Positions 7,693 through 64,000 of a stretch of DNA of 64,000 nucleotides are shown one piece after another. Location: IMG/VR virus record IMGVR_UViG_3300037457_000038, positions 58,144-122,143 of that record, one strand, 5' to 3'. A program made the translations under genes and the position numbers. Positions within the stretch are counted from its first letter, which is position 1, and each line of letters opens with the position of its first letter. The DNA is from a virus. The notes under the pieces are model-generated. The model had not been told where the DNA came from. It was given only the letters and a program-made list of their open reading frames with translations, and searched no databases.

Positions 7693-9629
7693 CCAGCGAG
7701 CCGCCCGCGTACTACACCCCCCAGCCGATGACGACGACGGCCAGCACACCGTCCGCATACCGGCTGACCAGGCCCATCACCCCGTCGTCATCGTCGTCAT
7801 CGTCACGTGGCGGCCTGTGGGGGCGCTGCGCCCTGTGGCTCGCAACCAGCGCACGGTGGGTATCACGGCGCCGCTACGAACTCGCCCCAGCCGGGGCCAT
7901 CACCGCGCTCACCACACTCGGACTCGCCCAAGACGGGCTGACAGCAGCGCTCGCCTACGGCACGCTGGCCGCCGGATCCGGAGCCCTCGCCGTGGCCGGG
8001 CTGCGCCACAAGAACGAGGTCGTCACCCATGTCGGTGCGGGCGGTGCCCTGGCCCTGGCCGATGTCACTACCGCGGTCGCCGCCGGCCTGTCCTGGCCCA
8101 CTTTGACTGCGTGGACGTTGACGACGGGTGTGGCGTACGGGGTGTACGGGCCGTGGCTCGCCGGGCAGCGCAATGCCCGGCTCAAGCTGCACGTCGACAG
8201 TGTGAAAGCGAAGGGCGCGCTGCCGGACGTGCTCGGCCTGGAGGCCGCTGATCCCGGCCTGACCGGAGCATCACCGGAGGAGACGGCGCTGCGCCGTGCT
8301 CTGCACGCTCTGACCGGCCACACCCCCACGACCGTGGATGCGATGCACCGCACCGGCACCGGATGGTCCTGCATCGTCACCATGCCCCCCGGGAAAGCCA
8401 CCGCACCCGAGGCGCTGGTGAAACGGAAGGCGCAGCTGGCGGCGAACCTCGGCCTTCCCGGAACACTCACCCTCACACCCGGGCCCGACAGCAACCAGCT
8501 CGTCGTCCGCATGGCCACCGCCGACACCCTCGCCGACACCCTCAACGTCACCGACACCGGAGTCACCACCTGCCGCGAACCCGTCCTCCTCGGCCGCAAC
8601 GAAGACGGGCATCCGTTCCACCTCACGGTGCTGTACCGCCACACGTTGATCGCCGGTGCATCCGACTGGGGGAAGTCCGGCATCGTGAACCTGGTCCTCA
8701 AGCGCCTCAACCGGTGCGAGGACGCCGACCTGTACGGCATCGACATGAAGCCCGGCGCGCCCGAACTCGGCCCGTGGCGGGGCCGCATGAAGACTCTGGC
8801 CACCAACCCGGAGCAGGCGCGGGGGCTGCTGGAGTGGATCCGCGCAGAGTGCGACCGGCGCGGTCAGGTCCTCGCCGAACTGTCCCGCAAGGCCATGGCC
8901 GAAGGAGCGGGCCCGGTCCGCAAGTGGGTGCCCGGCGTTCACGGCAGCGCGGTGTTCGTGTTCACCGATGAGCTCGCCGAGCTGGTGCGGCAGGACAAGG
9001 AACTTGCGGAGCTGTACGAGAGCCTGCTGGCAATCGCCCGCTTCCTCGCCATCCACTTCGTGTCCGCCACCCAGCAGCCCTCCCGGAAAGTGTTCGGCGG
9101 GTCCACGGACGCCCGCGGGAACTACGCCAACCGCATCTGCACCCGCGCCGGCGAGGCAGGGCACGGCCCGCTGATCTTCGGGCAGGGCAGCCAGAGCCGC
9201 GGCTGGCGCCCCGAACTACTCGACCTGCCCGGCAAGTTTTTGGCGCAGACCCCGGAGCACGACACCCCGCGCACCTACCGGGCCGAGTACGTCTCGGATG
9301 CCGACATCGCCGACGAGGTCGGCTTCTACCACTCCGACATCCGCGACACCAAGGAGCAGCCCGCACTGACTGAAGAGCCGTGGGTCGAGGCATTCGCCCC
9401 GGCACGGCTCCCCGACGGCACCCCTGTCGGCGACGCCTGGCCGCACCTCTACCGGATCCTTACCGACCGCGGCTCGGTCACCAAAAAGGAGCTCGCCTCT
9501 ACCGCCGGGGTGTCCCGGGACACGGCCATGCGCGCCATCGAGACATGGGAGCGGCACGGCGTGCTCTCCCACCGGGACGGCCGCTCCACCCGCTACTACC
9601 TCCCCAAGGAGCAGACTGATGCTTCCTGA
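7689..9629 (+). CDS. traB: FtsK/SpoIIIE-family conjugative dsDNA translocase (TraB-like)
   Basis: N-terminal TM helices; Walker A GASDWGKS; Walker B FVFTDE; ATQQP; C-terminal winged HTH. Confidence 0.85.
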   Translation: MTSEPPAYYTPQPMTTTASTPSAYRLTRPITPSSSSSSSRGGLWGRCALWLATSARWVSRRRYELAPAGAITALTTLGLAQDGLTAALAYGTLAAGSGALAVAGLRHKNEVVTHVGAGGALALADVTTAVAAGLSWPTLTAWTLTTGVAYGVYGPWLAGQRNARLKLHVDSVKAKGALPDVLGLEAADPGLTGASPEETALRRALHALTGHTPTTVDAMHRTGTGWSCIVTMPPGKATAPEALVKRKAQLAANLGLPGTLTLTPGPDSNQLVVRMATADTLADTLNVTDTGVTTCREPVLLGRNEDGHPFHLTVLYRHTLIAGASDWGKSGIVNLVLKRLNRCEDADLYGIDMKPGAPELGPWRGRMKTLATNPEQARGLLEWIRAECDRRGQVLAELSRKAMAEGAGPVRKWVPGVHGSAVFVFTDELAELVRQDKELAELYESLLAIARFLAIHFVSATQQPSRKVFGGSTDARGNYANRICTRAGEAGHGPLIFGQGSQSRGWRPELLDLPGKFLAQTPEHDTPRTYRAEYVSDADIADEVGFYHSDIRDTKEQPALTEEPWVEAFAPARLPDGTPVGDAWPHLYRILTDRGSVTKKELASTAGVSRDTAMRAIETWERHGVLSHRDGRSTRYYLPKEQTDAS

Positions 9630-23205: not shown

Positions 23206-23346
23206 AGGCAGGAGTGTGCACGAAGCGGTGACGCGCGTTTTCCGGAGCGCGCGACGGAAGATCGATCCGCACCGTTGGTCTGCGTTGGTCTGCGTTGGTG
23301 GTGATCGACTGCGACCTTCTGCGTTGTCATCAGTCCACGCAAAGCT

Positions 23347-34488: not shown

Positions 34489-37400
34489 GCTGGTGGGCAC
34501 CGCGGAGATCCGCGTCGATATGGCCACCCAGGCTGCGGTGCGGTCGTTGCAGCGGATGGTGGCCCGCACCGACGGACCACTACGGCAGCTCAAGCAGCGC
34601 ATCTCCGATGTGCGTAGTGAGCTGCGGCAGCTGCGCGGAACGAGCGTCGCGGTCACGGTCGATGACCGCACCGGTCCGGGTATCGCTGCGGTCAGGGCTG
34701 CGGTACGGGATATCGAATCTCTGGGTCCGGTGCGGATCCGTGCCATGGTCGATGACCAGACGGGGCCGGGTGTCGCAGCGGTCAGGGCATCCGTGCGGGA
34801 CCTGGAACGCCTCGGGCCCGCACGGATCCGTGCCATGGTCGATGACGAGACCGGACCCGGCGCGGCAGCGGTCAGGACAGCGGTACGGGACCTGGAACGC
34901 CTCGGCCCTGTCAATATCACCGCCCGCATCGACGTGCACGCGACTGACATCGCAGCCGCCACCACCGCACTGCGCAACCTCAAGGACGCTGCCGACGACG
35001 CCTCCCGCGCACTGCGCACCCTGAGCATGCGCGCCGCCGCAGCAGCCGCAGCACTCGGGGTCCTGTCCGTGCAGGCCCGCGCTCTACGCATCCAACTCCA
35101 CGACCTGGACGGGGCTCTGCGCAACGTCGGCTCCGGGATGGGCGGCCTACGCGGAAGGCTCGGCACCCTCTCCACCTCAGCCGGGAACGCTGAGAGCAGC
35201 ACCAGCAGCCTGGTTGCGGCTCTGATCGGGCTGGCGTCGGCTGCTATCCCGGTCGCGGCCGCGGTGGTGCCGATCGCCGCATCGCTGGGCGCAGCAACCA
35301 TCGCGCTGGGCGCGTTCGGTGGGGCGGTGGCCGGGCAGATCGTCAGCCTCGCCGAGCTGAAGGAAGCAGAGGACAAGGCAGCCGATGCCGCCGCCAACCA
35401 CGGCGCGGGGTCAAAACAGGCAGCGGAGGCGCAGCGCGGGTATCAGGGGGTACTGGATAGTCTGCCGCCGGCGACGCGGAGGGCAGCGATCGCGTTCGGT
35501 CTCCTGACCGAGCAGTATCAGGACTGGTCGGACGCACTGGCCAAGGACACTATGCCGGTCGTCACCAAGAGCATGGCGGTGTTCGGGGCGCTGTTGCCGC
35601 GACTGACCCCTTTGGTGCGGGGCACGTCGACTGAGCTGGACCGGATGATGTCCGTCCTGGGTGGGATCGTGCAGTCCGATGCGGTCGGCCGGCTCTCCCA
35701 GAGCTTCGCTGAGTTCGCGTCGGGCGCGATCTCGCGGGCGACCACGAGGCTGGCCAATTTCGCGCAGACCGCGAACACCGGGCAGATCGGGGACAACTAC
35801 CGCGAGTTCATGGCCTACGTGAGGGCGAACGGTCCGCTGGTCTCCTCCACGCTGCGCGAGCTGGGGCAGGCCGCGGTACGGATCGTGGTCGGGTTCTCCG
35901 ACCTGGGCGTGTCGGTGCTGACGGTAGTCAACGCGTTGGCGAGCCTGGTCAACACCATCCCCTCCGGCGCCCTGTCCACGTTTATTCAGATGTATGCGGC
36001 GCTGAAGTTGTTGCGGCTGGGCATGGCTGGGGTGGCTGCGGTCCTCGCCTCGGGGCTCGTCGCGAATATGCGCGCGTTCACCCGGGCTGCGGTCTCCGGC
36101 GGTGTGGCGTCGGCGTTGCAGGGTGTGGCGCAGCGTATGACGATGATGCAGAAGGCCGCGCTCGGCCTGGGTGTGCTGGCTGTGGCGGCGGTGGGGATTG
36201 GCGAGCTGGCGAAACGCGCTAGGGGCGCGCCGCCGGATGTGGACCGTCTCAACACGTCGCTGAAGGAACTCGTCAACACGGGCAAGTCCACGGGCGAGTT
36301 CCGTCAAACGTTCGGGGATGTCGACGGCCTAGTCAAGAAGATCAAACAGCTCGGGGTGGAGACGAAAAAAGCGCAGGACGCTGCAGGCGCGGGCACTGGA
36401 TTTCATATCCCCGGGCTCGATGACCTGGCGGGAAAAATCAGTGGCGCGGTCAACGACATGGTCAAGGGCAAAGACTCCCTCAACGCGCTGAAAGACGATT
36501 TCAAGAGCTTGGACGCGGCGCTGGCCGGGCTCGCTACCTCGGGGCATGCGGATACCGCCGCCGATGCGTTCAACCAGATCAAGACGGCTGCCCGCCAGCA
36601 GGGCGTCTCTGTCAAGGAGCTCAACAGGCTGTTTCCTGAGTATCGGGAAGCGGTGGCTGCGCTGAAGGCGGAGCAGGCGCTGGTGGCTGCGTCGATGGGC
36701 TTGTTCGGTCAGCAGGCGCAGGACACCAGCGCCAAGCTGAAGGAGCAGAAAGCGTCGGCGGATGGTCTGCGGCAGGCGATCGTCGCGCTGAACGACGTCA
36801 ACCGCAGCGCGCTCGGCGGCATGATCGGGTTCGAGGCCAGTATCGACGCGGCGTCGAAGGCAGCAAGGGAGAACGCCGGCAGTCTGCGCATGGTCAATGG
36901 GCAGCTCGATGTGAACTCGCCGAAGGCGCAGGCTGCCGCTACAGCTCTGAATGATCTGGCGGCGAAGACCGACGACGCGGCGGGGGCTGCGCGGGACAAC
37001 GGCCGCTCATGGGCGACCGTCAACGGGATCTACGACCGGGGCCGTCAGAAACTGATCGAGTCCGCGATGCAGATGGGCCTCACCCGCAAAGAGGCGCAGG
37101 CCCTGGCGGCACAGATCCTCAAGACGCCGGACAAGACCGCCCGCCTCAAGGGCAACATGGAAGACCTCCAGCAGAAGGTCGACAAAGCCAAGCGCGAGAT
37201 CAAGTCGGTGCCGCCGTCGAAGCGGTCCCGGTTCTGGGGCAGGATCGCCGACCTGGAGAAGAAAGTCCGGGACGCGAAAGCGCGCATCAAGTCGGTGCCG
37301 CCGTCGAAGCGGTCGGAACTGCGCGCCACGATCTCGCAGCTGGAGGCGCAGGTCCGCAAGGCGAAGGCATCCATCGGCTCGGTGCGGGGCAAGACTGTTT

Positions 37401-45942: not shown

Positions 45943-46488
45943 CTACTGAAAGTCCCTCGTCTTGATCTTCGCCATCGGCCCGTCAGGGTGGTGGTAGACC
46001 AGCCCCTCCCACTCGTGGCGCGCAAGGAAGTTCGCGATCTCGTCGTAGGTACGGATGTCGAGGCCGGGGGCGACGGTCTCTGCGGTCGCATGCCGGATGA
46101 GCGTGTGCCGGTCGAGGCCCTCCGGGTTGCCGTTTACCTTCGGGCCGCATAGTTCGTAGGTACCGTGCGGCCAGTCGCGCAGGATCTCGGCAGCTTCGGC
46201 GTGGTACTTCGCGAACGAGGACTGCTCGATGGGCTCCCAGCCCACTGTCTTGCCGGTGACCTCGTCGCGCTCGACGGGTGCATAGTTCGGAGGGGGCGTC
46301 TTCCCAGGCTTGACCTCACGGCGCGCCCACCACTCTCCGGACTCGTCGAGCAGCACGCATGTCCCGTCGTACTTGCGGGTCGCTACGCCGTACCCGTCCA
46401 TGACCCATTCGCAGCCGGGCGTGACCTCGGGCAGCACGTGGCGGCGGTCGTCAGGGTTACGGACGAAGAGGGTCGGGATCTTCTGCAT
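45943..46488 (-). CDS. RNA-ligase-like nucleotidyltransferase (DUF5565-like)
   Basis: ATRKYDGT (motif I), GTYELCG, EGLV, AKIK. Confidence 0.75.
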   Translation of the reverse strand: MQKIPTLFVRNPDDRRHVLPEVTPGCEWVMDGYGVATRKYDGTCVLLDESGEWWARREVKPGKTPPPNYAPVERDEVTGKTVGWEPIEQSSFAKYHAEAAEILRDWPHGTYELCGPKVNGNPEGLDRHTLIRHATAETVAPGLDIRTYDEIANFLARHEWEGLVYHHPDGPMAKIKTRDFQ

Positions 46489-46509
46489 CGGGCGATGCTC
46501 CTTCGCGGT

Positions 46510-46911
46510 TCAGGCTGCGGCCGATGGTAGCGGTGTAGCGGCGATCGGCTCCTCACGCACGTCGCGCACCCAGGAGATGCCGCAGGCGAGGCACAGTTCG
46601 TGCGGGTCGGTGTAGACCAGCGACGTGCCCAGGCACAGGGGGCATTTGGCGCGGGTACGGACGCGGCGCAGCTGGCTCCGCTGATACGTCGTGGTCCCGC
46701 CCCAGTAGCCTTCGGCGCGGTGGAGGGTGGCCCACAGCAGGCACTCCTGCCGCACGGGACATGCGCGGCACCACCGCTGCACCTCAGCGAGACTGGCCTC
46801 GGTCTCCTCATCGGGGACGAAGTCGAAATCGGCGGTGGCGCACGGCGCGTCTGCCTGCCATTCGGTGCCTTCGGCGCTGACCGCGTCGAGGATGCGCTTC
46901 TCGAAGTCCAC
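46510..46911 (-). CDS. WhiB-family transcription factor with C-terminal Zn ribbon
   Basis: WQADAPC...CRACPVRQEC...GYWGG. Confidence 0.85.
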   Translation of the reverse strand: MDFEKRILDAVSAEGTEWQADAPCATADFDFVPDEETEASLAEVQRWCRACPVRQECLLWATLHRAEGYWGGTTTYQRSQLRRVRTRAKCPLCLGTSLVYTDPHELCLACGISWVRDVREEPIAATPLPSAAA

Positions 46912-53124: not shown

Positions 53125-53288
53125 CCGAGGCATGCTTCTCGTGTCAGGAAGACATCCAGGACCCGGAGCCGGTAGGAGTTCAGGTCACCGCGGAGTCCGG
53201 GCCCGAAGGGCGGCCGCTGTACCGGTGCGCCGCCTGCACATCACAGGTCCACGCGATCACCGCCTCACTCCAGGGGTCTGTCCGGTGA
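53121..53288 (+). CDS. Small Zn-finger protein
   Basis: CFSC...SGP...LYRCAAC. Confidence 0.65.
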   Translation: MTEACFSCQEDIQDPEPVGVQVTAESGPEGRPLYRCAACTSQVHAITASLQGSVR

Positions 53289-53458
53289 GCGCTGACACGC
53301 AGCTGGCGGCGAACTGCCGCCTCGCCACCGAACACCCGGAGTACGCGGACGAGCATGAGCGGTGCCGGGGCACCACGACGGTGCAGGTTCCCGGCGGCTC
53401 GTTCACTGGGCAGCGCTGCGACTGCCCATGCCACCAGCGGCAGGCGTCGCCACCCTGA
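53285..53458 (+). CDS. Small Cys/His protein
   Basis: C...H..C...CDCPCH. Confidence 0.6.
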   Translation: MSADTQLAANCRLATEHPEYADEHERCRGTTTVQVPGGSFTGQRCDCPCHQRQASPP

Positions 53459-53500
53459 GACCGGCCCCGGCCGTCTGCGTCCCCCGCGCGGCGGCCGGGG

Positions 53501-53743
53501 TCACCCGTCGGGCATCAGGCTGCCCGACGGGACACCAAGCGCGCGGGCGATGGCGAGAATCCGGTCGAGCGGGGGGCTGGTGATGCCAAGCTCGATGCGG
53601 ACGATGGTGCGCCGCTCGACCCCCACCCGCTCGGCCAGTGCCTCTTGGGTGAGGTTGGCCTGTATGCGGGCGTCTCGTATGCGGGCGCCGACCTGCCGAC
53701 GCTGAGCGAGGAGCCAGTCGGGGAGTGGATCACGGGGCGGCAC
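53501..53743 (-). CDS. Small XRE-family HTH regulator
   Basis: GARIRDARIQANLTQEALAERVGVERRTIVRIELG. Confidence 0.85.
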   Translation of the reverse strand: MPPRDPLPDWLLAQRRQVGARIRDARIQANLTQEALAERVGVERRTIVRIELGITSPPLDRILAIARALGVPSGSLMPDG

Positions 53744-53924
53744 CCGACGACCGTGGTGTGATCACTGCCGAATGTCTGTGCCACAGCATGTGACAGTTTT
53801 GGATCAAGCCGGGCGGGTAACTGCTCCACTACCCCCCCAGTTGAAACACCCGTCCTGGGCCGGGGTGCGGTCCTCAATCCCAGGACGGGCCCAGCCCGGC
53901 CACCAGCCACTGGCGGCCGGGCTT

Positions 53925-55349
53925 TCAGCCCTTCCAGTCAATCTGTATCGCGTCGGTGTCGAAATACCGGTCCGCACCGGGGATACGGCCCCTGCGCGCG
54001 GGAAGCACCGTGACCGTCATCAGATACGCCAGAGCCGCCCGCTTACGCGACAGGTCGAACCGCGCCCAGGCCTCCTCTGGATTAGAGGACCCCACGAGCT
54101 CTCCCACGGGGTTGGCCTCCACCGCGCGGGACATGGCGTCCTGGCCACGTTTCAGCCGTGCGCGTGCGCTCTGGGACGCGATCCGCCACTCCTGCATGTC
54201 CATCTCCCCCGCACCGCGCGCCGCCGCCAGCTCATCGAGTGTCTGCCGGGCCTCCCGCATGTCCCTCTGCGCGCCCCGGACATCCACGGGGTCTTTGCGC
54301 TGGGCGAGGAGATCGGCGGCGTCTTCGGCTGAGACGCGGTCGAGGATCATGATCTGGATGTAGTCGTCGAGGAGATCGCAGCGCCGGGTGAGGTGCTTGC
54401 TGGCGCGGCAGCTGTAGGAGGGGACCAGCAGCCCGCCCCGGGTTTTGTTGCCGGTGGAGCAGCGCATCGTGGTGCCGTCCGCGCACACCCCGCACAGGTA
54501 CAGGTTGGAGCCCAGGTATTTGCGTTCGTTGCCGGGGGCGACGCGCCGGCCGGGGTCGTCGAGGAGGGCGCAGACGCTGCGCCACAGTGGCTCGTCGAGG
54601 ACCGCGGGCCAACTGGCGGTCCCGGCTTCCTCCCCTCGGTGTTTCAAAATGCCGGCGTTGCGGGGGCGGCGGAGCATGCCGCCGACCTCTGGACCTTCCC
54701 AGTCGCTGCCGGTGCTGGTGCGGATGCCGCGCTCATTCCAGTCGGCGGCGATGGAGCGCAGGGAGGTTCCGGCGAGGACGGTATCGGCGGCTTCACGGAT
54801 GAGGGTGGCTTCGGTTTCGCGGATGGTGACGCCGTCGCTCTCGTATCCGAAGGGGCGTCTGCCGCCGAAGTACTGGCCGGACTGGGCCATCTCGTCGCGT
54901 TTACGCCGCTGTCGTTCGACCATGCGTTCGACTTCGTAGCGGGCTTGCACGCCGAGCTGGCGGGCGATCATTCGTCCGGTAGCGGTGGACAGGTCGAGGT
55001 GCCCGGCTTTGACCGTGCGGGTTTCGATCCGGCGGGGCTCACACACGTCGATGTATTCCTCCAGCTCTGCCGGAGAGCGGTGGAGACGGTCGGTGTGCCA
55101 GGCGAGGACCACGTCGATACGGCCGTTGCGGATGTCGTTGAGGAGCCGTTTGTAGCGGGGTCGGGGCTTCCCGCTGTAGGCGGACAGGTCATTGTCGGGG
55201 TAGATGCCGATGACGTCGAATCCGAACTGGGCGGCGAGGGCTTGGCAGTCCTCGGTTTGTCTGGTGACGCCGAGTCCGGCGCCTTCACGGTCACGGCTGA
55301 TTCTGCAGTAGATGGCGGCGCGGGTGCCGGTTGGTGGCTGGTTGGGCAT
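53925..55349 (-). CDS. int: Large serine recombinase (integrase)
   Basis: YCRIS catalytic Ser, DNDLSA, DRLHR, PFGY recombinase domain, CGVC zinc ribbon. Confidence 0.92.
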   Translation of the reverse strand: MPNQPPTGTRAAIYCRISRDREGAGLGVTRQTEDCQALAAQFGFDVIGIYPDNDLSAYSGKPRPRYKRLLNDIRNGRIDVVLAWHTDRLHRSPAELEEYIDVCEPRRIETRTVKAGHLDLSTATGRMIARQLGVQARYEVERMVERQRRKRDEMAQSGQYFGGRRPFGYESDGVTIRETEATLIREAADTVLAGTSLRSIAADWNERGIRTSTGSDWEGPEVGGMLRRPRNAGILKHRGEEAGTASWPAVLDEPLWRSVCALLDDPGRRVAPGNERKYLGSNLYLCGVCADGTTMRCSTGNKTRGGLLVPSYSCRASKHLTRRCDLLDDYIQIMILDRVSAEDAADLLAQRKDPVDVRGAQRDMREARQTLDELAAARGAGEMDMQEWRIASQSARARLKRGQDAMSRAVEANPVGELVGSSNPEEAWARFDLSRKRAALAYLMTVTVLPARRGRIPGADRYFDTDAIQIDWKG

Positions 55350-55419
55350 GGTTGAGCATGGCACATCAGGTGGGTGGTTGGTGTTGTTTCGCTAGTGCGG
55401 AAGGGTGGGGAGAGCTGTT

Positions 55420-55704
55420 TTAAGAGTGCTGGTCAGCGGCTCGGGGTGCGGATGCCGTCGGTGGCGAGGTGGGTGCTGCTGTGGGTGCGGGGGTGGTGCT
55501 GGCGCCTCCGTGGTGGAGGCTGAGGTGTTTTTTGCGGCGGACGGGTTCAGGGAGCTCGGTGTCGATGAGGTGCTGGATTCGTTCGCGTTCACGGGTGAGG
55601 CGCAGTGCCGTGTGCTTCCGGGTGAGTGTGGTGTTCTGGCGGTGTTGCGCTATGACGGTGATGGCGAGGGTGGCGCTGATGGCTATCGGGGCGATTGGGT
55701 GCAT
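55420..55704 (-). CDS. Hypothetical protein with N-terminal TM segment
   Basis: GGAG RBS; between repressor and integrase. Confidence 0.45.
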   Translation of the reverse strand: MHPIAPIAISATLAITVIAQHRQNTTLTRKHTALRLTRERERIQHLIDTELPEPVRRKKHLSLHHGGASTTPAPTAAPTSPPTASAPRAADQHS

Positions 55705-55833
55705 GCGCTTCTCCGTCGACAGTGGGTGGTGCCGCTGTCGGGGTGCGGTGTCCGTGCACCGTGCGCCTGCTACGGAAGGCATGCAAGGGGTTACTGTGGG
55801 GTAGTGCTTGTTCGTATGTCCCGAACAGCTTTC

Positions 55834-56277
55834 CTAGCCCGTCTCACGCCGCTGCTCCTCACGCTCCAGTCGCTCTTGCAAGCGCCGCAGATCCGCATCG
55901 ATCAGATCCCGGACGCCCTGGACCCGCTCGGCCAGGGGGACATCCGCAGCCAGGATTGCGCGGGCGCGCGGGTCGCTGAGAATCCACCCCTGCTCACTGG
56001 CCTCCACGGCCTGGATGGCGGCTCGCTCTTCAGGCAGAGGCGTGGGGTCTCCGCCTTCGAGGACTGCCTGGAGCGAGCCGGCATCCCAGCGGAGGGCGGC
56101 GTCGATTCGGCGTTTGGTAAGGCGTCGGGGGTTCGTCTTGCCCTGCCGGAAGTCGAGCAGGGACTGGTAGGACATTTTCGCCGTAGCTGCTACGTCTTTC
56201 CACATCATGTCGAGCTGCTGGCGACGCTCGTCCATGAGCTTGTCAGCGCGTTGAAAGTCGGGCTCGTGGGAGGTCAT
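55834..56277 (-). CDS. Immunity repressor-like HTH protein
   Basis: WKDVAATAKMSYQSLLDFRQG...IDAALRWDAGS. Confidence 0.75.
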   Translation of the reverse strand: MTSHEPDFQRADKLMDERRQQLDMMWKDVAATAKMSYQSLLDFRQGKTNPRRLTKRRIDAALRWDAGSLQAVLEGGDPTPLPEERAAIQAVEASEQGWILSDPRARAILAADVPLAERVQGVRDLIDADLRRLQERLEREEQRRETG

Positions 56278-56381
56278 GTCGGCAGGCTACCCGAATTGGC
56301 CCACATTTGATCTAACTGTGGCCTACTTTACTCACTCGGCGCTAACTTTTGGCCAAACCTTCACAGCCACCAAACCCCACA

Positions 56382-57704
56382 TCACACCAAGATCCACCCG
56401 CCATCTGCGCCCCGGAGCAACCCAGCAATCACCTCCCCGGTCACCGGATCGACAGCCTCACCACCTGCATTGACATATCGCACATCCACCCGCCGCGGAT
56501 CCGGCTCCGGACTGCCAGTCCGACGCCGCTCGGCGAGGCGGGCGCGCTCACGCTCCCAGTGCTCCCGCTGTGCTTCATGACGCTTCCGACGACGCTCACC
56601 CATCCCGTGCGTGCCCAGCCGGAAGGCCGCGTCCTCCCAGCTTTCCACCGGGCCAGGGCAGTCCGCGCTCGCCTCGCCGACACCTTCGAGGGCATGCTCG
56701 GACAGGTGGTACAGCTCCCCGACGTGGACGACCAGGCCGAGGCCCGCAAGCTTCTTCAACTGCCGGTACACGGTCGGACGGGAGACCGACGCAGCGCCCT
56801 GGATCTGCTGCACCGTCTGCCCGTCGTTCTCCGCGAGCGCAGCAGTGATGGCCAGTCCGCTACCGCCCAGCCCGAAGTGAGCGAAAGCGTCCTGTGCCAT
56901 GAGTCTTGCCGCGGCCCGGGAGTCGATGTCGGCGTCCGTACTGTCCTGTCTCACCGATGACCCACCCGCTAGGGGCCGCAGGCTGGGGGGGCCATGGGTG
57001 GCCAAACCGTGAGACTGACCCTCCCCGGAAGGGCTGATCAGCATCCACCTCGCAGCGTCGGTCGCCGTCCCCTGGTCGAGCTGCCTCAGCAACTTCGCTT
57101 CCTTCAACCGCCGGTTGGAGGTGCGTGCGGTCTGCTGACTGCATCCCATCCGCTCGGCGAGATCCCGCTCGGAGACGGTGTGGTCCCAGCTACCGGCCTG
57201 CTCGCAGATCGCCAGGCGGGCGATGAGGTTGCGCAGGTCGGTCTTCCCGGCGATGCCCTTCCAGGGGGTGCGTTCGATGCGGGCGCGGAGGTGGGCAAGG
57301 GATGCGTGGAAGTCGAGCCGGGTGGCGATGCGGTCGGTGGAGTTGACGTGCTGCTGGGCGCCGTCCCATGCGCGTGCGAGCCACGCGTGGGCGCGGTCGT
57401 AGCCGTGGCGGTGCTGGATTTGGCGGGCGTGGGCTCCGGCTTTGTGGGGGCCGTTGAGGAGGGTGTGGGTGAAGGCGGAGCGGGTCCATCCGTTACGGGC
57501 GGCGTCGGCGGCGATGGCGCGGGTGATGGCCCAGGCGTGGTTGGAGTCCGCACTGTTGGTACCGCCGCGTTGGCGGTTCCAGGTGGCGTATGCGCTGTGG
57601 GTGTCGCCGTCGGTGAGGAGTTTGTGCATGCGGGGCGACAGAGGTGGGGTGCTCTGGCCTGCGTAGTTGCGGGCTTTTGTGTAGTTCTGGCTATGCTGTG
57701 GCAC
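56382..57704 (-). CDS. Putative plasmid-type replication initiator (two winged HTH domains)
   Basis: SERDLAERMGCSQQTA and SVSRPTVYRQLKKL HTHs; 440 aa; structured leader; function inferred. Confidence 0.55.
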   Translation of the reverse strand: MPQHSQNYTKARNYAGQSTPPLSPRMHKLLTDGDTHSAYATWNRQRGGTNSADSNHAWAITRAIAADAARNGWTRSAFTHTLLNGPHKAGAHARQIQHRHGYDRAHAWLARAWDGAQQHVNSTDRIATRLDFHASLAHLRARIERTPWKGIAGKTDLRNLIARLAICEQAGSWDHTVSERDLAERMGCSQQTARTSNRRLKEAKLLRQLDQGTATDAARWMLISPSGEGQSHGLATHGPPSLRPLAGGSSVRQDSTDADIDSRAAARLMAQDAFAHFGLGGSGLAITAALAENDGQTVQQIQGAASVSRPTVYRQLKKLAGLGLVVHVGELYHLSEHALEGVGEASADCPGPVESWEDAAFRLGTHGMGERRRKRHEAQREHWERERARLAERRRTGSPEPDPRRVDVRYVNAGGEAVDPVTGEVIAGLLRGADGGWILV

Positions 57705-57806
57705 AGCGAATCTCGTCTCTGTTGCGTTCGCTCACGCCGTCGGGTGACTTGCGATCACCGCGTTCGGCCTTAGACCCCCCGGGAGGTGACCGGGGGGTCT
57801 TTTCTT
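57704..57806 (+). ncRNA. Candidate antisense (counter-transcript) RNA over the rep leader
   Basis: TATGCT -10 at 57692, three stem-loops, + strand hairpin with T tail. Confidence 0.45.
57772..57806 (+). terminator. Intrinsic terminator
   Basis: AGACCCCCCGG-gaggtga-CCGGGGGGTCT-TTTCTT. Confidence 0.75.
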
Positions 57807-57908
57807 GTGCCAGCCTACAGCTAAGGTCATGTCTTACCAGGTGTGGCTAGAGTTGTTACCCGTGAGTACCGGTTGTAACTTGACCTAACTTGAGTCTATG
57901 TTTGGCCC

Positions 57909-58163
57909 ATGGCAGATATCCGACTTGATCGGGACAAGCTGAAACGCCGCCGCGAGACCAGAGGCTTCAACGTGCCCGCCCTGGCACGCGCTGTAGGCGT
58001 CAGCTCCGAGCACATCTACCGAATCGAATGGGGCACGCGCCGCCCGTCGCCCCGCCTCTACGCCAGGCTCCGCGAAGTCCTCGACGTCAACGAAGAAGAA
58101 CTACTCACCGATGCCCCGGTCGGGTCGGAGGAGTCCGCCGAGTCCCCGGCAGGTGCGGTGTGA
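57909..58163 (+). CDS. Cro-like HTH regulator
   Basis: LARAVGVSSEHIYRIEWGTRRPS; divergent from the repressor operon. Confidence 0.85.
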   Translation: MADIRLDRDKLKRRRETRGFNVPALARAVGVSSEHIYRIEWGTRRPSPRLYARLREVLDVNEEELLTDAPVGSEESAESPAGAV

Positions 58164-58342
58164 GCCCCCGGCCCGAGTCGTGGTCGCGTGCCGCCGCCGA
58201 GAAGCGTCTCGGCCCTACCGCCGTCGCAGCAGCCCGCCGCCACGTAGCCGCCGCACCCCCGCTGAGCCCCGAACAACGCGCCCAACTCCGCGCCCTGTTC
58301 CAGTCCGCCCCACCCCGCCATGCGGCCACTGACGCCGCCTGA
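58160..58342 (+). CDS. Hypothetical protein
   Basis: APPLSPEQRAQLRALF; coupled to cro. Confidence 0.65.
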   Translation: MSPRPESWSRAAAEKRLGPTAVAAARRHVAAAPPLSPEQRAQLRALFQSAPPRHAATDAA

Positions 58343-58427
58343 CCCACAGATGTGGGCCCGCCCCTAACTCCGCAGTCCGGGACGGACCCCTCAGTTCACC
58401 TCACCACTGATGAAAGCGAGGCTCACT

Positions 58428-58823
58428 GTGAGCATCCAGAATACCGACTCGATGTCCATGGCGGTCGCCGCCCTGGACGCGATGGACAACCACACCACCC
58501 GCGTCCGCGAGGTGGCGGAGCGGCTGCTCAGCGTCCACGCCGACGGCCTGCCGAAACTGCTCACCGTCCGTACCGACGCGGGGGCCTCTGGTCCCCGTCT
58601 GGAGCTCCAGCCGCGTACGAACGAGGCCGCTACGCAGTGGGCGCAGGCGCTCGGGGTGACGCTGACGGAGTCGTTCGCGGGTGACCGTGACGGCTGGCGG
58701 CGGTGGCACACGAGCGGCTCTGTCGATGTCGACGGGGTGCGGGTGCATGTGGGCGCCTGCGAGTGGGTGCTTTCGGCGGTGGAGGCCGGGGCGGCTGCGG
58801 ACTCCATGGCGGTGGCCCGGTGA
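58428..58823 (+). CDS. Hypothetical protein
   Basis: GAGG RBS; early operon. Confidence 0.65.
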   Translation: MSIQNTDSMSMAVAALDAMDNHTTRVREVAERLLSVHADGLPKLLTVRTDAGASGPRLELQPRTNEAATQWAQALGVTLTESFAGDRDGWRRWHTSGSVDVDGVRVHVGACEWVLSAVEAGAAADSMAVAR

Positions 58824-59674
58824 GCGCGGCGGGCCGTCTTCAGACGCGTGAGGGCACGGCGTGGACACTGCGCGGCCTGAGCTTTGCTGGTGAGGGCTTG
58901 TACGCGCCGGAGGCTGTGCGTTGCTGCCCGCAGCAGTTGTTGGTGACGGCGGGCGAGTTGGCGGAGCACGGTGTGCGGACGCTGGTGGGCCAGGAGGACG
59001 TGGCCGAGCTGGACGTCGCCGTCCAGGTGGCCGTGCTGAAAGGGCTGCTGGCCCCGGCAGAGGCTGCCGCTCCGCTGTCGGCCGTGCCGGAGTCGAGGTG
59101 TGTCGAGGACGAGCTGACCGGCGCGCGGCTGTCGCTGTGGGAGGAGGAGCAGGAGAACGCGCGGCTGCGGGCTCGGGTTGCCGAGTTGGAGGACGTGGAG
59201 CGTCGTCTCCTCGACCTGCTACCCACCGAGCCCCTGCCCGCAGTGATGCTCGCCGAGGACATCCCGGCCGCCCGCTCGGAGTGGGCGGTGTGGCAGCAGG
59301 TCGCCGAAGCGCTGGACGTGCAGCTGCCGTACGTGCGGCCGGTGGATGAGGACCCGATCCCGTACCAGCAGACCGAGGCGGCGGACGCTGCCGGGCCGGA
59401 GGTGACGGTGTACCGGGCGTCGCACGACTCGATCGTCATGGGCCTGTACACCGCACGCGAGGCCGCGATGGACCACGTGCACGCCGTCCTCGCGAACGAA
59501 GAGGGCTGTGACGTGACTGCCCGGGTGATCTGGCGTGCGGACGACCCGGAGGCTGACGAGCCCGTGTGGGAGTGCTGGCTCTTCGACTCCGACATGGCCG
59601 ACGACGAGCCGACCGGCTATGTGGTGACGCCGCTGGAGGTCGCCTCCGCCTACGACGAGGAGGCGGACGAATGA
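58820..59674 (+). CDS. Hypothetical mosaic protein
   Basis: GTGA coupling; coiled coil. Confidence 0.7.
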   Translation: MSAAGRLQTREGTAWTLRGLSFAGEGLYAPEAVRCCPQQLLVTAGELAEHGVRTLVGQEDVAELDVAVQVAVLKGLLAPAEAAAPLSAVPESRCVEDELTGARLSLWEEEQENARLRARVAELEDVERRLLDLLPTEPLPAVMLAEDIPAARSEWAVWQQVAEALDVQLPYVRPVDEDPIPYQQTEAADAAGPEVTVYRASHDSIVMGLYTAREAAMDHVHAVLANEEGCDVTARVIWRADDPEADEPVWECWLFDSDMADDEPTGYVVTPLEVASAYDEEADE

Positions 59675-63879: not shown

Positions 63880-64000
63880 ATGGGCCTGTTCGAGTTTTTT
63901 GACTGGCTGTGGGTCGTGGCCACGGTCGCCTGGGCTGGGGCTCCCGTCGCGTTGATCGCCCTCGCTGTGTGGGCGGCCCGGGTCGCTCGCCGGAAGGCGC
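63880..64000 (+). CDS. Membrane protein, truncated by the window end
   Basis: GGAGG RBS; hydrophobic open frame to the end. Confidence 0.5.
   Translation, partial: MGLFEFFDWLWVVATVAWAGAPVALIALAVWAARVARRKA

Follow-up and report, generated by a model that had tools for sequence, protein, structure and literature searches.

A putative primase-less replication protein in the predicted lysogeny region of a phage-like element from a sediment metagenome

Integrative-replicative-conjugative elements of actinomycetes are already known, and the role of their Prim-Pol proteins in replication is treated as not proven in two reviews (PMC2440964, PMC3218068). As stated in PMC8567376, the primase helix bundle must be present for primer initiation, and catalytic and helix-bundle domains that were supplied as separate pieces and mixed gave low primer synthesis. 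Among phages, the cluster A mycobacteriophages carry a RepA that is necessary and sufficient for extrachromosomal prophage replication, and a parABS cassette replaces the integration cassette in these phages, according to PMC7157519. Here we describe a gene in a 64,000-nucleotide stretch of viral DNA, referred to as the window, which is the last 64 kb (positions 58,144 to 122,143) of the 122,143-bp record IMGVR_UViG_3300037457_000038, listed in IMG/VR as 'linear' and with a CheckV completeness of 100%. This gene, henceforth the Rep-like gene, lies in the predicted lysogeny region of a phage-like unit; judged by sequence comparison, its product is homologous over its whole body to the non-catalytic part of longer actinobacterial Prim-Pol proteins, and its relatives were found on Streptomyces plasmids.

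The 122-kb record is phage-like throughout, no host genes having been seen in it, and contains two different phage-like units arranged head to tail, each with structural genes, an integrase and Tra/Spd-like genes. Unit A (genome 1-64419) carries a tyrosine integrase, an XRE regulator, a Cas4-like exonuclease, a 1105-residue Prim-Pol-helicase (genome 43975-47292) and an HNH endonuclease. Unit B (window 6277-64000) carries TraB, terminase, portal, a serine integrase, the Rep-like gene and RecE/RecT, and has only a mosaic of genes in common with unit A; the virion genes (terminase, portal, MuF/protease) and TraB thus share one unit. The initial annotation of the window, made from the letters alone, had placed a protein of 440 amino acids with two winged helix-turn-helix (wHTH) domains between cro and the repressor, at the head of a leftward row that continues with the repressor, a small open reading frame (ORF) and a serine integrase, and had noted phage genes on both sides of the integrase with no host DNA. 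All of this was borne out: the ORF is present at 56382-57704 on the minus strand, both wHTH domains were recognized by Pfam and by AlphaFold, the leftward row was recovered from gene order and family matches, and the flanks consist of portal, terminase, MuF/protease and lysin genes on the left and of RecE and RecT on the right.

The composition of the Rep-like ORF at third codon positions is of the coding type (GC3 = 0.81). Its public gene call starts at Met26 and yields 415 amino acids, although the longer form that starts at GTG is favored by a PPLSxR motif, conserved in homologues upstream of Met26. The AlphaFold model of the protein, built from 55 sequences (predicted local distance difference test score, pLDDT, 87.3; predicted template modeling score, pTM, 0.73), starts with an all-helical N-terminal domain (residues 24-170), followed by a wHTH (~150-225), a disordered linker, a second wHTH (~262-340), a long helix (368-395) and then a small beta domain; the overall order is helix-bundle domain, two winged helices, conserved C-terminal helix and small beta domain. 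In Pfam, HTH_20 was matched at 2.3e-9 over residues 284-328 and GntR at 6e-6 over residues 178-211, the latter slightly short of the family cut-off. Many solved wHTH proteins matched both winged helices in VIA structural comparison (Z 8-9.6), and only wHTH rows were obtained with the whole model; among these, the initiator of a multiresistance plasmid (4pta_D) reached Z 8.1 at rank 25, amid many generic wHTH rows from which it does not stand out.

The 15 Pfam families that matched the Rep-like protein at E ≤ 0.01 were all generic HTH/wHTH families and included no Rep family (Rep_3, PF01051, among those absent), and the PHROG and NCBIfam scans likewise returned generic winged-helix families only, with no Rep model. 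The catalytic domain of archaeo-eukaryotic primases (AEP/Prim-Pol, PF09250) was not found in the protein by Pfam. Against the sequences of the Protein Data Bank (PDB), phmmer gave 0 matches, and a profile search retrieved generic wHTH regulators only. A Foldseek comparison of the 56382-57704 model, which the initial annotation had suggested as a check, came back empty, in that no PDB match was found at E ≤ 1e-3 for the whole model or for the model of the N-terminal domain.

The affinity of the protein emerged from its longer relatives. An exhaustive HMMER search retrieved 421 representative clusters at E ≤ 1e-3, and among the 150 rows listed from these, 43 in which the match starts at residue 148 or beyond were chosen by eye. 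In 16 of these 43 longer actinobacterial relatives, the Pfam scan identified a Prim-Pol domain, N-terminal in position and with a best E-value of 1.2e-47, and the AEP motifs DxD and SGxxGxxH are visible in the N-terminal consensus of the longer relatives. When the primase-less set was aligned with the Prim-Pol-bearing set by hhalign, a probability of 100% and an E-value of 3.6e-75 were obtained over 319 columns (query residues 18-361 against positions 163-485). It is to be noted that both sets were gathered with one query, so this result documents the extent of the relationship, which covers the whole body and not the HTH alone, rather than an independently discovered homology. The Prim-Pol-fused proteins share with the Rep-like protein their C-terminal winged helices, and in the alignment the homologues of the primase-less branch begin at the helix-bundle domain.

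The helix-bundle assignment was examined at the level of structure as well. Residues 20-170, folded alone, gave a model of high quality (pLDDT 92.7), of which the best VIA matches cover residues 20-124, and primase helix-bundle domains accounted for 3 of the top 6 VIA rows for this domain. RepB' of RSF1010 (3h20_A) matched at Z 7.0, with a root-mean-square deviation of 3.4 and 79 aligned residues, and ORF904 of pRN1 at Z 6.0 (3m1m_A) and Z 5.9 (6gt7), with 80 aligned residues each; such values of 6-7 are modest and fall under the level that the tool considers safe for helical domains. Although unconvincing alone, these model-based values agree with the sequence data, in that the same region follows the Prim-Pol domain in the relatives. 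An Atlas structure search with the Rep-like protein also listed primase/polymerase and AEP-TOTE clusters.

The distribution of the family is that of a plasmid gene. By tblastn, none of 50,697 phage records matched the Rep-like protein, and 24 plasmid records did (22 Streptomyces, 2 Kitasatospora; 154 kb to 1 Mb in size, identity up to 62%), the match spanning at least 80% of the query in 17 of the 24. Accessions for the plasmids pSLA2-L and SCP1 lie outside the plasmid collection searched, so the absence of these plasmids among the matches is uninformative. Viral contigs searched with this single protein yielded no relative. At E ≤ 1e-5, 93 clusters were obtained, including that of the window itself; the other 92 are nearly all 50-63% identical over 73-99% of the query, the exceptions being one that is 49% identical and one that covers 52%. 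The longest contig measures 85-510 kb in 50 of the 93 clusters and exceeds 5 Mb in 4, and the remaining 39 are on shorter, uninformative contigs.

The gene neighborhoods were compared in 19 loci (14 species genomes and 5 plasmid records), in which ORFs were called and clustered in this analysis. A ParA gene lies within 10 kb of the Rep-like homologue in 12 of the 19 loci, and 8 loci have a MinD/ParA-like gene; on large Streptomyces plasmids, the relatives usually reside between ParA-type genes, in the rep/par core. This plasmid context is resembled by two of three metagenome loci, whereas a context like that of early phage genes is seen instead on pSTRVI02 and one metagenome contig. Considering the Prim-Pol homology, the helix-bundle domain and the plasmid distribution together, a replication-related origin of the Rep-like protein is well supported. 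The likeness to actinobacterial plasmid initiators that the initial annotation had proposed is upheld in this form, through Prim-Pol-type homology and plasmid distribution, but it is not of the iteron type, as neither a Rep_3 match nor iterons were found.

Some further features of these loci may be mentioned. On plasmid contigs, long direct repeats of 96-117 bp occur in the 1-4 kb between the Rep-like homologue and parA (locus L011, 14266-14646; locus L016, 12387-14170). These candidates for centromere or origin repeats show no conservation from one plasmid to the next. In 11 of the 19 loci, a conserved gene of ~275 amino acids lies directly upstream of the Rep-like homologue (for example, 8403-9305 in locus L010); its product has an N-terminal winged helix and no Pfam match, and is IclR-like by eye. 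The idea that this gene is a split-off Prim-Pol was dropped, given the lack of a Pfam match and the IclR-type sequence.

In the explanation that we favor, the Rep-like protein would correspond to the half of an actinobacterial Prim-Pol-type plasmid replication protein that binds the origin and has no catalytic function, composed, from N to C terminus, of a primase helix-bundle domain, two DNA-binding winged helices and a conserved basic helix. As a member of a widespread primase-less branch from the rep/par core of large Streptomyces plasmids, it would have been recruited into the phage immunity region, where its gene heads the leftward row with the repressor-like gene, the small ORF and the serine integrase. 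It may bind a putative site on the phage DNA and bring about theta-type replication, the priming enzyme being recruited in trans in the form of a host primase or a Prim-Pol catalytic subunit from elsewhere. The gene would then be the only recognizable replication function of the phage unit and, if expressed together with the repressor, could allow the prophage to replicate without integration. That the Rep-like gene acts as a replication initiator or origin-binding factor for the phage element has, in our judgment, about an even chance of being right. That its product provides a stable plasmid prophage is a narrower claim, which we place between doubtful and unlikely; plasmid maintenance is not well supported because no catalytic domain, ParA/ParB or iterons were found.

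A number of observations, besides the modest helix-bundle scores and the missing catalytic domain, weigh against a replicative role. All public names across the family read 'HTH/MarR transcriptional regulator', and in the literature we found no study of the primase-less branch and no experimental role for any of its members. The sole Prim-Pol of the record lies 70 kb from the Rep-like gene, in unit A, and none adjoins it. ParA (PF13614) and ParB_N (PF02195) are absent from the whole 122-kb record under a search in which control genomes gave matches, unlike the situation in most plasmid relatives, where ParA is nearby; in addition, the partner genes of the plasmid context, represented by three neighbor clusters, have no member in the record. 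There is no iteron array in 53400-58500, and no tandem repeats were found in 57600-58450 or, in a scan of the whole window, within 3 kb of the Rep-like gene, although these scans leave room for degenerate or distant sites. In favor of a replicative role, on the other hand, scanning of unit B gave no match to Prim-Pol, DnaB, PolA or helicase, and no replication PHROG was found among the unit B proteins scanned. However, an ORF is cut off by the end of the record, and 227 nucleotides beyond this end are covered by a Logan contig of run X1, so replication genes of unit B could lie off the record. The claim that unit B has no other replication gene is weakened by this possible incompleteness on its right side.

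Several of these observations are what one would expect of a transcription factor, that is, of a former replication protein that has lost its primase, binds operators in the intergenic region on the cro side, and acts as an additional regulator, either of the switch between lysis and lysogeny or of the expression of the integrase. Two winged helices are typical of MarR, ArsR and GntR regulators, the gene stands at the switch and is divergent from cro, no catalytic domain, iterons or nearby par genes were found, and the sources all use the name 'transcriptional regulator'. One would not expect a simple repressor that binds operators, however, to need the helix bundle and the whole-length Prim-Pol homology, which have been kept at 50-63% identity over many plasmids. 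The relatives, moreover, adjoin par loci and not phage switches, and are absent from all of the phage records searched. Lastly, a separate repressor-like gene follows the Rep-like gene, so the 440-residue protein is not needed as the immunity repressor. A purely regulatory role seems to us unlikely. A different division of labor would make the protein a lytic replication initiator, comparable in role to O of lambda and used only after induction or infection, with the prophage kept solely by integration. This agrees with its being the only replication-like gene of unit B, with the intact appearance of the integrase and the candidate attP, and with the failure to find partition genes, but the gene points leftward with the repressor and the integrase, away from the rightward early row with RecE and RecT, and the family is typical of plasmids and absent from phage records. 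We consider strictly lytic use unlikely.

It is also conceivable that a catalytically empty Rep copy excludes competitors, by occupying and blocking the origins of resident plasmids or rival phage-plasmids of the same family. The DNA-binding body is kept and the catalytic domain is absent, close relatives are abundant on Streptomyces plasmids, and co-expression with immunity functions is possible by position only. The primase-less form is, however, common on plasmids, including those without another recognizable Rep, such as pSTRVI02, which has no Prim-Pol, and this argues for a functional protein and not a decoy; an exclusion or incompatibility factor is thus highly improbable. We return to the replicative explanation, in which the position of the gene leads us to infer expression during lysogeny.

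The initial annotation had gone further and read the DNA as a virion, integrative, plasmid and conjugative element in one, a claim that rests on a metagenomic contig of two phage units that may be chimeric. The small membrane ORFs that open the two units are homologous (90% identity over 167 bp, ~51 nucleotides of which form an exact core). As the DNA comes from a sediment metagenome, the record may be a true cointegrate or tandem, or else an assembly join via this shared stretch. Nothing was retrieved from viral or metagenome contigs with an exact 24-mer taken where unit B starts. Circularity of the contig, which had been proposed for checking, received mixed answers: the 122-kb record has no terminal repeats and is listed as 'linear', whereas the ORF cut by the record end (63880-64000) is in frame, with no stop, with the first ORF of the record (genome 1-215), such that a circle would give an ORF of 111 amino acids. 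This fusion across the ends is weak evidence either way. The fullest version of the idea would be a temperate tailed phage with a choice, namely to integrate via the serine integrase or to persist as a plasmid through a primase-less initiator that provides origin recognition and the helix bundle and borrows a catalytic Prim-Pol subunit in trans, a possible donor being the 1105-residue Prim-Pol-helicase of the neighboring unit A, and which could also be transferred as naked DNA by TraB; such a virion-forming, integrative, replicative and conjugative element, dependent for replication on a partner element, appears quite unlikely on the available evidence.

The predicted features of the lysogeny region are collected in Table 1. 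The cro-like protein matches 17 PHROG regulator families. Within the divergent control region, a strong terminator-like hairpin lies at 57772-57806 on the plus strand (11 bp, 9 of them G-C pairs, with a T tail), where no plus-strand gene ends, and a consensus scan of 57705-57908 revealed no sigma-70-like promoter. The hairpin fits the idea that a candidate antisense RNA, which would end at 57806, covers the rep leader. Conservation of such an antisense terminator among the plasmid homologues was considered and dropped, as no counterpart was seen upstream of them; in contrast to the phage leader, their upstream regions are rich in G+C and resemble coding sequence, and the hairpin is thus phage-specific.

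In 94 phage records, tblastn found weak matches to the 147-residue protein encoded next to the Rep-like gene (E 6e-6 to 1e-3; identity 32-38%), and 11 of the 12 listed matches overlie genes of Gordonia and Mycobacterium phages that bear the annotation immunity repressor. The 120-residue ORF had no Pfam, PHROG or NCBIfam match. In the integrase, both the Resolvase catalytic domain and the Recombinase domain are present, as in the large serine integrase module of phages, and the protein is 34-36% identical to serine integrases of Mycobacterium and Streptomyces phages. The candidate attP core sits in a 181-bp gap downstream of the integrase gene, where an attP role is plausible. A Logan contig of run X1 spans 53183-54474 without differences, and Logan contigs of the probable source run show the attP-contiguous form and, likewise without a break, the row that leads from integrase to cro; these contigs are short and uninformative on copy number, circles and integrated copies. 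Pieces with an identical sequence were also present, at low depth, in a second study. Joints and loose ends among the Logan contigs, at 90% likeness, belong to other organisms and cannot be read as attL/attR.

Table 1. Predicted features of the unit B lysogeny region and of the Rep-like gene (window coordinates)
Feature	Position	Strand	Description and evidence
Candidate attP core	53849..53889	.	11-nt perfect inverted repeat CCCGTCCTGGG / CCCAGGACGGG, 19-nt spacer
Large serine integrase, 479 aa	53925..55364	-	Resolvase 4.2e-27, Recombinase 1.8e-12, phrog_95 9.8e-90
Small ORF, 120 aa, uncertain gene	55420..55782	-	Coding score 18.2 (low)
Immunity-repressor-like HTH protein, 147 aa	55834..56277	-	phrog_37057 'transcriptional regulator' 1.1e-11
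Rep-like gene	56382..57704	-	440-aa ORF, GTG start
Second winged helix (ArsR/MarR/IclR-like), codons 262-340	56685..56921	-	Pfam HTH_20, model, VIA up to Z 9.6
First winged helix (GntR/Crp-like), codons 150-227	57024..57257	-	Pfam GntR, model, VIA Z 8-9.3
Helix-bundle domain, codons 20-125	57330..57647	-	Separate domain model pLDDT 92.7, VIA matches
Divergent control region, Rep-like gene / cro	57705..57908	.	204 bp, 56% G+C
Cro-like XRE-family HTH, 84 aa	57909..58163	+	HTH_31 5.6e-11, HTH_3 1.2e-7; first gene of rightward early row

Elsewhere in unit B, a 10-bp unit, CGTTGGTCTG, occurs at 23270-23326 in ~3 copies and one degenerate copy, within a 439-bp gap upstream of the portal gene, and may be a protein-binding array. 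Tandem repeats of 87-90 bp are found at 34657-34905 and 37190-37365, inside a gene of tape-measure size (1379 amino acids). Between the lysis and regulator regions, the minus strand carries an RNA ligase-like gene (45943-46911; phrog_14301, 6e-52) as well as a WhiB-like gene. For the 323-residue early protein encoded at 58703-59674, an Atlas search gave nothing.

For most large Streptomyces plasmids, no replication initiator is known, and the Rep-like family, which is conserved and adjoins par genes, is a concrete candidate; for such a family, 'MarR regulator' would be the wrong name. A primase accessory domain that is joined to putative origin-binding domains without the enzyme suggests an unusual, split start of replication. 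If the protein is indeed an initiator, this would explain how a phage unit without a polymerase, primase or helicase gene is copied, and it raises the idea that some Streptomyces prophages are kept either integrated or free. Should it prove to be only a regulator, it would still be an example of a replication protein turned into a component of a switch.

Among the known systems, the actinomycete Prim-Pol replication proteins (pSE211/pMEA100 type; SLP1 SCO4617/4618 region) have a body that is homologous to the Rep-like protein over its whole length, and both are found on mobile elements of actinomycetes, together with integrases and transfer genes of the TraB type; unlike them, the Rep-like protein and its close relatives are without the Prim-Pol catalytic domain. 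In RepB' of RSF1010 and ORF904 of pRN1, the helix bundle follows the AEP catalytic domain, an order also seen in the longer relatives described here, but these proteins differ in their low identity (5-6%), in having the catalytic domain in the same chain, and in lacking the winged-helix pair. The iteron-binding Rep_3/RepA/RepE/Pi initiators have two winged helices in common with the Rep-like protein, although neither the family match nor iterons were found. Thus, the protein passes as neither a Rep_3-type iteron initiator nor a Prim-Pol enzyme, and its alignment places it, over its full length, in the primase-less branch.

The plasmid-phages pZL12 and pSLE1 of Streptomyces are, like unit B, genomes of tailed phages with a gene for transfer (PMC4487206, where pSLE1 is described with two integrase genes and both plasmids with ParA and ParB); in the 122-kb record neither ParA nor ParB was found, nor were iterons near the Rep-like gene. 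No pZL12-like plasmid is among the 24 plasmid records matched by tblastn. A repA-iteron locus is present in pZL12 as well. A closer counterpart is pSTRVI02 (NC_015952) of Streptomyces violaceusniger Tu 4113, a circular plasmid of 191 kb, which resembles unit B in carrying a 53%-identical Rep-like homologue amid small early-type genes, as well as phage head genes (portal and MuF) with relatives in unit B; neither a ParA-type gene nor a Prim-Pol was found on it. It differs in being three times larger and in having no integrase within 8 kb of the homologue. Our literature search found nothing relevant on the replication of pSTRVI02 or on pFRL4. On these features pSTRVI02 looks like an unrecognised phage-plasmid. 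Relatives of the unit B portal occur on 7 plasmid records of 58-191 kb, one of which, pS1D4-14.2 (98.8 kb), has ParA, a ParB-family gene, a P4-type primase and a tyrosine integrase.

The RepA of the cluster A mycobacteriophages is, like the protein proposed here, a phage-borne initiator of plasmid type, but it belongs to a different protein family. Moreover, the extrachromosomal prophages of that cluster are described, in PMC7157519, as having parABS and no integration cassette, whereas in unit B an integrase is present and par genes were not found. Since par and integrase are alternatives in these mycobacteriophages, an integrase together with a putative plasmid-type initiator and without par would be a variant worth testing, rather than a new kind of element.

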